This document shows, piece by piece, positions 2,385 to 6,131 of a stretch of DNA of 64,000 nt. The translations under genes and the position numbers were made by a program. Source of the stretch: Escherichia coli (GTDB lineage Bacteria > Pseudomonadota > Gammaproteobacteria > Enterobacterales > Enterobacteriaceae); the NCBI RefSeq assembly GCF_003334765.1, contig NZ_QOWT01000002.1; one strand, written 5' to 3'. The notes below the pieces were generated by a model that was given only the letters and a program-made list of their open reading frames with translations, ran no database searches and was not told where the DNA came from. The stretch's first letter is position 1. Every line of letters begins with the position of its first letter.

Positions 2385-5300
2385 TTACCATTTCACCGTC
2401 ATCGACAAAAACCCTGCCGTCTGGGCAAAATCATCACTCCCTTTCTGCCACGCCACGCTGCCGCGCAGGGACACTCGCTGACTGATATTGCCCGTGACTC
2501 CCACTTTTATTTCACCCCGTTGCTTCACCGCATCGTCACTGATAGTGCTGCCATCCTCTTCAATTTCCGTCGAATGGGGATCGTGATAATAATTCAGATC
2601 TAATGTTGGTATGACATGAACAGCGGTACGCCATTCGCTGTGTAAACCCAGCCGCGTCTGAATATCATCACCCTGCGATTGTGACACGCGCGCACGGTTA
2701 GCGGCGGTAAAATCATCCTGCTGCACGCCCTGATAAATCACCTGCGCCTGCGGTTCAATCACCACACCACGCCCCGGTAACCACTGATACCCCGCCTCCA
2801 GCGAGGCGATAATCCCCGACGAGTGGTAATGATCTGTGCCATCTTCTTGTTCGGAAACATCATTGCTAAACCACGCGTATTGCAGCCAGCTATCCAGCCA
2901 GGCCCCTTGCTTCTGATTACCGTGCTGAAACCAGCTTGATGTCAGCCCAACGGCATAACCGTGGTTCTGGTTATCGGCGCGAGTTCCGGTCATATTCGAG
3001 CGGCTGTCGCCCTGGTTATCGCTGTAGCCACCAACAATCCCAAGCATCCACTCGCCATCCGTGCCCCAGCGCCCGCTAAACAGATCGCCGCTAAGTTGCA
3101 CCGTAGAAGTGTCTTCATGTTGAGCCAGTTGCCCCGCTGCTGTGTAATGATAATCTCCGCCGATAACACGTAAATTCAGCGTCTGACCATCGCCACCTGC
3201 GTGATCGCGTCGCTCCATCATAAACGCCTGATTTGCCGCCCGCAGGTTATTGAGATAACCGCCAACTTTGGCATTCAACACCGGCTGGTAAGCAGGCGTA
3301 GGTTCCGGGTCGGGTGTTGGATCAGGATCCGGCGTGGGATCGGGAGTCGGGTCTGGATCAGGTGGCGATGGCGGCGTTACTTCTTGCGATCGCAGATACC
3401 AGTCGTTGTTATCTTCCACCAGCGTGTAGTCATACGCTCCCATATTGACGTAGCCGCTGCCTGCCAGACTGAACTGCGCATTGTTTTGAAACTGCGTGGG
3501 ATCAGCTGCGAAATCAACCACTTTAATGCCTGTCGATGTCGGCTCACCAATCCCTGTAATGGAGTTAACCACCACAGTTGTGTTGCCAGCAGTATTACCG
3601 TTCATCACCAATTGATCGCTTACCGAGTCATCGCCGTTTAATTCGCTATCGAGCAGTAGCGTACCGCCGCCGGTATAATCACCGTTTACCGTCAGCGTAT
3701 CGCCAGCGACGCCATTTTGCAGGCTAACCGCACCGGACGTATTGGTCAGATTGCCATTAACCGTCACGTTGGAAAGATAAGTCAGGCTGTCAGTTTCAAG
3801 GTTGGTATTAAGCTCACCTGTCAACGTCACACCATCGGTGGCATTCACCAGCGTCCCATCGCCGTTAAATAGTGAGGCATTAAGGGCGACGGAAGTATCC
3901 TGCCCGGTCAGGCGCAAAACCGTACCATCGCTGATGTCGATAGTGCCGCTGGAAATAGCATCAATTGACTGAATATCCTGATCCGCGCCAGTAACGAACG
4001 TTGCCCCATCACCAACCCACAGTGACGAAGCATAAGGAAGGATATCAGCAACATCACCTTTCAGGGTGCCTTCTTCGACACGTACCGCCGACTGCGTTGT
4101 ACCGCTGGCGGTCAGCTCCAGTGTACCAGCCCCCGTTTTAGTCAATGTGCTACCCTCATCCTGATGCTGCCCGCTGCTGTCAGCCATCAGTGCGCCCCAC
4201 TGCGTGTCTACCCCCGCATCAACTGCCACTTCACCGTCGGCGCGCATTTCAATATCACGTCCGTGGCCTGCCGCATCTGAACGCGTGTCAACGTCGGAGG
4301 TAATCTCCATCACGCTTTCTTGTTGCTTATCGGTAAAGATAACCTGGCGGTTATAGTGGGTATCTCCAAGCTGCGAGTTGTCGCTCACCATCAGCGTACC
4401 GGAGGCGATTTGTGTTGTGCCCAAATAACTATTATTGTTTGCCAGACTTACCTGCCCGTCGCTCGCATCGACCACCACGTAGACGCCATCTTTCCCGTCG
4501 CCGCCGATATGCAAATTGTCGCCACCTGCAAGATCTACCACATCCTGACTGCCGATAACCGTTCCGCTGCTGCCACTGACTTCAAGGCCATCGTTGTATG
4601 ATGTGCCGCTCTGCCAGGTGGAGAAATCAGAGAGATCGAGCACACCGCCGTTTAACACGATCGACTGCGGATCGTCCTGGAGAGCGGTAAGATCTGCCGC
4701 GTCGCCTTCCAGCGAAAGCACCGCACCATCATCAACGACTATATCGCCGGTTAGCGCCATCGACTGCGCCCCTGCCAGCACGTAGCTGCCGTTTTGCGCA
4801 ATGGTGAGCTGACCAGCACCTTCGATGATGCCAGCAAAACTGCCCTGATTAACAGTAACGTTGCCACCAGCATCGATATTTAAAGTGCCATTCTGAAAGC
4901 CCGTCAATGCGTGCACAAAAGTTTGTTGGGTCGAGCCAACGTTTAGCTCAGCCTGATTCTGATACTGATCAATACTCCCTATCGTCAGACCGTAGCAGTC
5001 TTGCGGATCGTCCTGGCAATGCGTATCGCCGACATTCATCAGGGAGTTGCTGCGGCCCAGGGTAACTTCACCGTTTTCAATCTGCATCTCACCAGTAAAG
5101 TCATTGTTATCTGCATTAAGTACCAGATCGCCGGAACCTGTTTTGGTGATTAACCCGGTACCAGCAATAGAGTCAACAGCTCCGTCATTCTCTGTATTGC
5201 CAATAACCAGCGTTTTTCCGTCGGCAATATCAAAGGTAACTTCACTTAAGCCGAGATACATAAAGCCACCCGCCGCAGAGGAAGGACCATCTCCATAGCC

Positions 5301-6131
5301 TGCTGCGCTATTGTTCTCATCGACTAACACGCCTCCGTTCTGGCTGTAGCTGTCATCAACAGAAATATCAATAAGATAGGGAGCCGTCACGCTATTGGTA
5401 TATATCGCCCCGCCATAACCTTCGGCAGTGTTATTTGTAAAGGCAGTGTTATTTACTATCGTATAACCTGAAGGATGCTTGCTGTCGCTATTATTATCGG
5501 TAACATCGATTGCCCCGCCATCGCCATCACTGTAACTTGTTGATGTATATGCCTGGTTGTTATCAAAAATAACATCACTTAAATAAACGTCATTATTAAT
5601 GGTATAAATTGCGCCACCTTTGCCATCATTAGCGATGTTATTGCGAAACATGGCGTTAGTGACACGTAAATCGACGGCACCAGTATCGTTAGTACCAGAA
5701 GAATAGATTGCGCCACCATAGCCGCCTGCGACGTTACCGGAAAAAATAACATCAGTAAGATTCAGCGTTGAGTTTTCTTTAGCAAATATGGCCCCGCCGT
5801 TATTATATTCTCCTGTAACGGTGTTATTGGCAAACAGAGTCATTCCAGTTTCATTTTCTGGTAATAGTGAAAATTCCGCTCCTTGTTGCAAAAATACGGC
5901 CCCACCGCTGGCGTTATTGGTCATATCCGAAAAAACCAGCCATTGCCCATCAGCGATACTCCAGTCCTGCGTAATGCCTGAAAGGCTTTGCCTGCTGGCC
6001 TGACAACTCGCTTTGACATCATATCCCTGGCATGAATCAGTGACCGCCGCGACACCGTTAGCAGAGAAAAGAGATGCAATCATTGACGGGAGTAAAGATA
6101 AATACTCCTTGCGTAGAAAGATAATCCGCAT
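2385..6131 (-). CDS. yfaL: AIDA-I-type autotransporter adhesin (1248 aa in this window)
   Basis: Track ORF 2385..6131; signal peptide, long G/N/T-rich beta-helical passenger with repeated GGAIY motifs, Pro-rich PDPTPDP linker, C-terminal beta-barrel ending in W. Confidence 0.92.
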   Translation of the reverse strand: MRIIFLRKEYLSLLPSMIASLFSANGVAAVTDSCQGYDVKASCQASRQSLSGITQDWSIADGQWLVFSDMTNNASGGAVFLQQGAEFSLLPENETGMTLFANNTVTGEYNNGGAIFAKENSTLNLTDVIFSGNVAGGYGGAIYSSGTNDTGAVDLRVTNAMFRNNIANDGKGGAIYTINNDVYLSDVIFDNNQAYTSTSYSDGDGGAIDVTDNNSDSKHPSGYTIVNNTAFTNNTAEGYGGAIYTNSVTAPYLIDISVDDSYSQNGGVLVDENNSAAGYGDGPSSAAGGFMYLGLSEVTFDIADGKTLVIGNTENDGAVDSIAGTGLITKTGSGDLVLNADNNDFTGEMQIENGEVTLGRSNSLMNVGDTHCQDDPQDCYGLTIGSIDQYQNQAELNVGSTQQTFVHALTGFQNGTLNIDAGGNVTVNQGSFAGIIEGAGQLTIAQNGSYVLAGAQSMALTGDIVVDDGAVLSLEGDAADLTALQDDPQSIVLNGGVLDLSDFSTWQSGTSYNDGLEVSGSSGTVIGSQDVVDLAGGDNLHIGGDGKDGVYVVVDASDGQVSLANNNSYLGTTQIASGTLMVSDNSQLGDTHYNRQVIFTDKQQESVMEITSDVDTRSDAAGHGRDIEMRADGEVAVDAGVDTQWGALMADSSGQHQDEGSTLTKTGAGTLELTASGTTQSAVRVEEGTLKGDVADILPYASSLWVGDGATFVTGADQDIQSIDAISSGTIDISDGTVLRLTGQDTSVALNASLFNGDGTLVNATDGVTLTGELNTNLETDSLTYLSNVTVNGNLTNTSGAVSLQNGVAGDTLTVNGDYTGGGTLLLDSELNGDDSVSDQLVMNGNTAGNTTVVVNSITGIGEPTSTGIKVVDFAADPTQFQNNAQFSLAGSGYVNMGAYDYTLVEDNNDWYLRSQEVTPPSPPDPDPTPDPTPDPDPTPDPEPTPAYQPVLNAKVGGYLNNLRAANQAFMMERRDHAGGDGQTLNLRVIGGDYHYTAAGQLAQHEDTSTVQLSGDLFSGRWGTDGEWMLGIVGGYSDNQGDSRSNMTGTRADNQNHGYAVGLTSSWFQHGNQKQGAWLDSWLQYAWFSNDVSEQEDGTDHYHSSGIIASLEAGYQWLPGRGVVIEPQAQVIYQGVQQDDFTAANRARVSQSQGDDIQTRLGLHSEWRTAVHVIPTLDLNYYHDPHSTEIEEDGSTISDDAVKQRGEIKVGVTGNISQRVSLRGSVAWQKGSDDFAQTAGFLSMTVKW
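3296..3372 (-). repeat. in-frame Pro-Asp/Thr microsatellite-like repeat inside yfaL (encodes PPSPPDPDPTPDPTPDPDPTPDPEPTP)
   Basis: Plus strand shows iterated ggatc(a/g)gg / gggtc(g/t)gg units; translated linker between passenger and barrel. Confidence 0.75.

Follow-up and report, generated by a model that had tools for sequence, protein, structure and literature searches.

The yfaL autotransporter gene of Escherichia coli encodes an acidic spacer of alternating proline residues just ahead of its membrane barrel, and the length of this spacer differs among strains by clean blocks of DNA whose ends lie at short direct repeats. Replication slippage is the mechanism suggested by the sequences of these alleles. 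We consider it very likely that a proline spacer, occasional slippage leading to a ladder of lengths, and the loss of one GATCCT unit in the allele examined here together give the best overall explanation. The spacer is a real but ordinary repeat polymorphism that changes slowly.

Identification of yfaL

The window, i.e., the whole stretch of 64,000 nucleotides of E. coli DNA that was analysed, contains the following gene.

2385..6131, minus strand: yfaL/ehaC coding sequence, 1248 aa plus stop, an AIDA-I-type autotransporter adhesin (open reading frame list and translation)

Translation gave an uninterrupted reading frame of 1248 aa, and by sequence homology the gene is yfaL/ehaC: the NCBIfam equivalog NF007285 was matched with 2800.5 bits (cut-off 1459), residues 1–1248 being aligned to profile positions 1–1250. 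It is 100% identical to the annotated yfaL of the porcine ETEC strain UMNF18 (RefSeq), whose neighbours are nrdA/ypaB on one side and ubiG/gyrA on the other. The protein has the features of a type Va autotransporter, namely a C-terminal 12-stranded β-barrel with a preceding pore helix (PF03797, TIGR01414, AlphaFold, and homology to 4MEE) and a β-helical passenger that ends in an autochaperone (PATR and PMP repeats, AC_1 with E=2.4e-18). Judged by eye, the N-terminal sequence MRIIFLRKEYLSLLPSMIASLFSANGVAA resembles an extended signal peptide. An earlier reading of this DNA (hereafter the sequence-only reading) had asked whether the 1248 aa differ from other strains by one repeat unit. They do: K-12 YfaL has 1250 aa, and the difference is exactly one 6-nt unit.

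The gene is broken by an IS1A element in NCTC9040 (NZ_LR134247.1, hit H67). In fragments from Shigella sonnei (P0094), foreign sequence precedes the passenger at about residue 305, suggesting that the gene has taken up an insertion here as well. An antisense open reading frame of 146 aa with a GTG start (3201–3641, plus strand), in which the complementary strand of the spacer is translated into a Gly-Ser/Val repeat, had no NCBIfam match and is unannotated in the identical RefSeq record; it is therefore probably spurious.

Position and Composition of the Spacer

Domain searches and structure prediction placed the following features in the C-terminal part of YfaL. The Pfam query began at residue 49, and an offset of +48 was applied to the positions.

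3420..3752, minus strand: autochaperone domain (Pfam AC_1), residues 794–904, C-terminal end of the passenger (Pfam E=2.4e-18)
3294..3374, minus strand: acidic alternating-proline spacer, residues 920–946, the length-polymorphic tract (AlphaFold coil, pLDDT<50)
3228..3272, minus strand: predicted α-helix AKVGGYLNNLRAANQ, residues 954–968 (AlphaFold pLDDT >80; aligns to 4MEE)
2454..3173, minus strand: autotransporter β-barrel (Pfam PF03797), residues 987–1226 (Pfam E=2.8e-34; TIGR01414; AlphaFold strands)

The peptide encoded on the minus strand of 3294–3374 is exactly PPSPPDPDPTPDPTPDPDPTPDPEPTP, 27 residues. It starts with PPSPP, followed by eleven X-Pro dipeptides in which X is D, T, or E. 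Half of the prolines of the whole protein (15 of 30) are found within these 27 residues in strict alternation, indicating that the tract is a peptide repeat rather than a product of chance. The linker peptide named in the sequence-only reading is thus real and lies in a yfaL autotransporter (NF007285, 2800 bits). The tract had been located correctly at 3296–3372, although both ends were 2 nt short and its strand, which is minus, had not been named.

The AlphaFold model of residues 838–1248 has a mean pLDDT of 80. It shows β-strands up to residue 914, the spacer as coil, a helix (model residues 117–131) that starts 8 residues past the end of the spacer, and then the strands of the barrel. By analogy with solved autotransporters, this helix would plug the barrel. 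Homology to the AIDA-I structure 4MEE (E=3e-31) extends to either side of the YfaL spacer, but 4MEE lacks the tract. Considering the positions of AC_1 and the barrel, the predicted coil, and the gap in 4MEE, the tract is a spacer that links the folded passenger end to the putative barrel-plugging helix. Residues 920–946 thereby occupy the same kind of inter-domain position as the proline-rich domain of TibA, between AC_1 (794–904) and the helix and barrel (954 onward).

Distant homologues, among them E. coli paralogues and proteins of Sodalis, Salmonella, Achromobacter, and Bordetella, have X-Pro tracts of 11–47 aa at the same position, implying that such tracts are a recurring feature of this group of autotransporters. 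AIDA-type proteins with X-Pro spacers there include P0019, P0027, P0028, P0039, P0043, and P0099; the longest spacer, of 47 residues, belongs to one metagenomic protein. One E. coli paralogue has its own spacer variants of 11 and 15 residues (PDPEPTPTPDP and PDPEPTPTPTPTPDP). Judging from these sequences, polymorphism of spacer length may be general in the AIDA-type group.

Repetition in the Spacer DNA

In the peptide, the repeat of the spacer is strong; in the DNA, it is degenerate. The sequence-only reading had described near-identical 6-nt units, which does not hold for this allele: the eleven units have a mean identity of 57%, only 2 of the 55 pairs match exactly, no direct repeat is longer than 9 nt, and Tandem Repeats Finder reported nothing on yfaL at a score of 30 or more. 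Because its DNA repeat is so weak, the window allele should be a poor substrate for slippage, and poorer than its parent, since the deletion took part of an 11-nt repeat. Compared with random back-translations that used the gene's own codon usage, the spacer DNA was no less repetitive (P=0.12 and 0.43), and thus gives no hint that repetition of the DNA has been selected in either direction. Head-to-tail near-identical DNA units, as expected of a VNTR, are thus missing from the window allele; they are present in other alleles, as 3 x 12 nt in strain 1105 and as 2 x 18 nt in the 23-aa family and in CFS3246.

Four GATC (Dam/MutH) sites are located within the 81 nt of the spacer (3320, 3326, 3338, and 3356), a density of about 49 per kb compared with 5.6 per kb over the gene, and the K-12 allele has five. 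This cluster is a by-product of the Asp-Pro codon pairs (GAT-CCN). The spacer also holds one BamHI site.

Length Classes among E. coli Genomes

Segments of 359–377 nt across the spacer were compared with 5,426 complete E. coli genomes, 5,420 of which contain the locus. Identity bands of the BLAST output were unusable for counting alleles, because matches joined from two pieces hide the gap. Instead, we drew three systematic samples of 60 genomes and calculated the length difference between the query and record spans; the first and last row of each sample were dropped, which left 174 rows. The resulting frequencies are those of samples from a biased collection of complete genomes. Additional classes were found by targeted searches.

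29 aa: 115 of 174 rows (66%)
23 aa: 41 of 174 rows (24%)
31 aa: 12 of 174 rows (7%)
21 aa: 6 of 174 rows (3%)
17 aa: at least 22 genomes (targeted search)
25 aa: at least 9 genomes, EAEC 042 among them (targeted search)
33 aa: at least 8 genomes (targeted search)
35 aa: CFS3246 and strain 35, the latter by its identical record length (targeted search)
37 aa: strain 1105 (targeted search)
27 aa (class of the window): 7 complete genomes, six porcine ETEC and one deer isolate

The six porcine ETEC genomes are UMNF18, ETEC4073, ETEC4090, ETEC1706, ETEC1716, and P13-6. Altogether, ten classes were detected in the complete E. coli genomes (17, 21, 23, 25, 27, 29, 31, 33, 35, and 37 aa), 19 aa being absent. 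All ten lengths are odd, indicating that each change is a multiple of 6 nt and that the X-Pro register is never broken. The spacer therefore shows the whole-unit copy-number polymorphism among strains that is characteristic of a VNTR, and the invariance over a broad strain panel that would have argued against the sequence-only reading was not found.

Reading the DNA of 27 fetched loci placed the length difference inside the spacer in all 27. Among strains, annotated yfaL coding sequences range from 3717 to 3783 nt (1239–1260 aa). In the fetched alleles, at least seven distinct indel events fall in the 81-nt spacer, compared with two small indels elsewhere in the 3.7-kb gene, one of +6 nt in B2-type alleles and one of +3 nt in SMN197SH3, leaving aside a deletion in VTB97022v.

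Block Changes and Their Origin

The window allele differs from its closest relatives by a single unit.

3336..3344, minus strand: junction CCC GAT CCC, with one GATCCT fewer than the 29-aa allele, CCC GAT CCT GAT CCC (codon comparison)

Both K-12 and S43 have CCC GAT CCT GAT CCC at this place, so that one of two tandem GATCCN units is missing from the window. The 3747-nt gene is otherwise identical to many phylogroup-A-like 29-aa alleles (99.8%, with the 6-nt gap only), and no difference from S43 was observed over 360 nt of flank. A reciprocal gain is found on the same background in WP2-S18-ESBL-08, in which two GATCCT units (GAT CCT GAT CCT GAT CCC) give a spacer of 31 aa. Together with −18 nt in UTME-3 and +18 nt in CFS3246, these −6 and +6 nt changes make four independent length changes on the K-12-like background.

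Larger blocks follow the same pattern. ECO2947 (23 aa) and SMN197SH3 (17 aa) are one 18-nt unit apart with no differences in their flanks, and the ECO2947 allele has a perfect 20-nt repeat at 18-nt spacing. The 12-nt unit GACCCAACCCCC occurs once in CFT073 (29 aa), twice in MS1170 (33 aa), and three times in strain 1105 (37 aa). The longest repeat of the common allele is GATCCTGATCC (11 nt), whose two copies are 18 nt apart, and the products expected from its slippage were written down before the genomes were searched. The predicted duplication was matched by CFS3246 (35 aa) with 99.6% identity and one mismatch in 245 nt, and the predicted deletion junction was found in the 25-aa allele of the 042 type. 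UTME-3 (23 aa) has another 18-nt deletion, between GATCC repeats. A larger deletion lies between two copies of a direct repeat, one of which falls in the autochaperone domain.

3494..3503, minus strand: upstream copy of the 10-nt direct repeat GATCCCACGC, with the second copy in the spacer at 3332–3341

In VTB97022v (L013), the 162 nt between the two GATCCCACGC copies are deleted in frame. This removes the last part of the autochaperone and the first 12 residues of the spacer; the annotation still lists the gene as intact.

Replication slippage would be expected to leave this pattern, clean blocks bounded by repeats within DNA that is otherwise identical, although unequal recombination between the same direct repeats may have produced the blocks instead. 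In-frame expansion and contraction, as proposed in the sequence-only reading, is borne out by these 6-, 12-, and 18-nt blocks in intact reading frames. The strict X-Pro peptide imposes a degenerate 6-nt period on the DNA (GAY/ACN-CCN), in which short direct repeats abound (e.g., GATCC, GATCCTGATCC, and CCCGACCC). According to the model favoured here, replication occasionally misaligns such repeats and would thereby add or remove 6-, 12-, or 18-nt blocks while both the frame and the X-Pro register are kept. In the course of its history, E. coli would in this way have built up a series of spacer lengths between 17 and 37 residues, and the rare 27-residue allele of the window, found in a porcine ETEC lineage, would derive from the common 29-residue one, a single GATCCT unit having been lost.

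Pace of Change and Alternative Explanations

Variation in length mostly follows deep allele families, defined by their flank haplotypes, implying that much of the spacer variation may be old and spread by recombination. This raises the alternative that old, maintained alleles are simply shuffled by homologous recombination and that slippage is not ongoing at the spacer. Length largely matches the flank families (B2-type PTPPP, 23-aa DPIP, and K-12-like), and 29 aa is common to the phylogenetically distant strains K-12, O157:H7, and CFT073. Moreover, an identical 27-aa spacer occurs on two flank backgrounds: deer strain 48 shares the spacer DNA, and its flanks differ at 18 of 571 positions. A 29-aa parent for the strain 48 allele was not found in the complete-genome collection, and the sequences would fit either a second loss of the unit or the transfer of a short recombination patch. 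However, the −6, +6, −18, and +18 nt changes lie on flanks identical to K-12 or one base off, the perfect 12-nt unit forms a series of one, two, and three copies, and perfect periodic tracts of 20, 29, and 32 nt (in the 23-aa family, CFS3246, and strain 1105, respectively) must be recent. The comparison of the window allele with its otherwise identical 29-aa relatives likewise argues for de novo change. We therefore regard shuffling of old alleles without ongoing slippage as decidedly unlikely.

If slippage occurs, its pace needs to be considered. The spacer might be a contingency locus, i.e., a rapid and reversible switch of length by which the adhesin is tuned or varied within populations in the manner of phase or antigenic variation. 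YfaL is surface-exposed, the changes are strictly in frame with the X-Pro register kept, and the frequent breaks of draft assemblies at the spacer could reflect mixed populations. Such a locus should change frequently within clonal lineages, which was not the case in the sampled genomes: every one from K-12 and its derivatives, from the B/BL21/REL606 family, and from O157:H7 has 29 aa. This uniformity within the sample indicates, indirectly, that the spacer is not a hypermutable switch. In addition, only a handful of the approximately 1,690 genomes with a yfaL at least 99% identical to that of the window have a derived length, and both the window allele and the common allele lack a long perfect repeat tract. 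A contingency locus is thus very unlikely. The term slippage-prone, used in the sequence-only reading, is appropriate at the scale of lineages but not within clonal groups.

Errors of sequencing or assembly in a GC-rich repetitive stretch are extremely unlikely to account for the classes, for even though short-read contig ends cluster at the spacer and a fold-back chimeric contig starts there, the same alleles turn up repeatedly in complete genomes that were sequenced independently (7 genomes with 27 aa, at least 22 with 17 aa, at least 8 with 33 aa, and at least 9 with 25 aa), and all differences are 6-nt multiples at repeat boundaries in intact reading frames.

Inverted Repeat and Assembly Breaks

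A perfect 13-nt inverted repeat, CCATCGCCACCTG / CAGGTGGCGATGG (3187–3199 and 3359–3371, 159 nt apart), encloses most of the spacer together with the pore helix. The repeat results from the complementarity of the PSPPD codons to the downstream GGDG codons. The draft contig L015 (GCA_045750765.1) opens with a fold-back exactly at this repeat and gives rise to a chimeric "protein" (P0009, 53 member sequences) that starts with MGSGSGVGSGSG, the reverse-complement reading of the spacer. Inversion of the spacer was considered and rejected. None was found in the 5,420 complete genomes, all of which are collinear except for the one with the VTB97022v deletion; the fold-back at the contig end is therefore read as an artefact of assembly or library preparation.

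Many short-read contigs, mostly from S. sonnei and some from E. coli (L016–L020), end variably in or just before the spacer (about 3290–3450), and others begin just after it (P0005, 303 members; P0006, 519 members). These breaks might be due to the inverted repeat, to a mixture of spacer lengths, or to a dip in coverage over a stretch of 67% GC. The S. sonnei spacer allele, known in part, starts with PPSPPNPNPTPDP; none of the complete E. coli genomes carries it, the best match being 98.1%.

Comparison with Known Systems

By behaviour, the nearest known system is pertactin of Bordetella, an autotransporter that, like YfaL, has short proline-containing repeats whose copy number varies among strains. 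Its region 1, (GGXXP)n, and region 2, (PQP)n, consist of 15- and 9-nt units within the passenger, and region 1 adjoins an RGD motif (PMC3279416). These repeats serve for strain typing (PMC12243275). In contrast, the YfaL tract is an X-Pro dipeptide spacer that follows the autochaperone domain and immediately precedes the barrel helix. We know of no immune or vaccine selection on YfaL, in which it also differs from pertactin.

By position, the nearest is TibA, the self-associating autotransporter of ETEC, in which a proline-rich domain lies between the junction region and the membrane-embedded domain (PMC3835316). The order in YfaL is similar: autochaperone or junction, proline tract, and then helix and barrel. 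The likeness is one of position. The proline-rich domain of TibA has about 50 residues compared with 27 in the window allele; no report of length polymorphism in this domain was found in the literature. AIDA-I (4MEE) is the closest homologue with a solved structure. Its junction and barrel are homologous to those of YfaL on either side of the spacer (E=3e-31), and a short non-proline link, LPTSDTRQYRPE, takes the place of the 27-residue X-Pro tract of YfaL.

Charged alternating-proline segments also serve as extended spacers off a membrane anchor in TonB, (Glu-Pro)n(Lys-Pro)n, and in trypanosome procyclin, (Asp/Glu-Pro)n. Both proteins and their compartments are unrelated to YfaL, for which an extended form is suggested by composition and by the low-confidence coil. 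Literature searches yielded no publication about the spacer of yfaL or about its polymorphism. This polymorphism is a further example of a known phenomenon, next to the PQP repeats of pertactin and the proline-rich domain of TibA.

Possible Function and Implications

Considering its composition and the low-confidence coil of the model, the acidic alternating-proline spacer should be extended and stiff; a coil with pLDDT<50 is compatible with either an extended or a disordered segment. With about 3 Å for each residue of an extended chain, the spacers would measure roughly 50–110 Å from the shortest to the longest allele, each step adding about 6 Å. It is reasonable to suppose that spacer length sets the stand-off of the passenger from the barrel mouth and LPS. 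That length is an adaptive setting rather than the outcome of neutral drift, allowing the passenger to clear O-antigen or capsule or to escape antibodies or phages, appears quite improbable to us. If it were so, spacer length should co-vary with the type of surface polysaccharide independently of phylogeny.

The polymorphism reveals no new mechanism, and its practical and scientific value is modest. It explains the differences in yfaL gene length among strains (1239–1260 aa) and marks a site at which allele-calling schemes and short-read assemblies can stumble. YfaL has been used as an anchor for surface display, an application in which the stand-off distance of the passenger matters. The spacer lengths of this core-genome adhesin form a natural series of alleles, which could serve as a ready-made experiment on the stand-off that a passenger needs from its barrel and from LPS.
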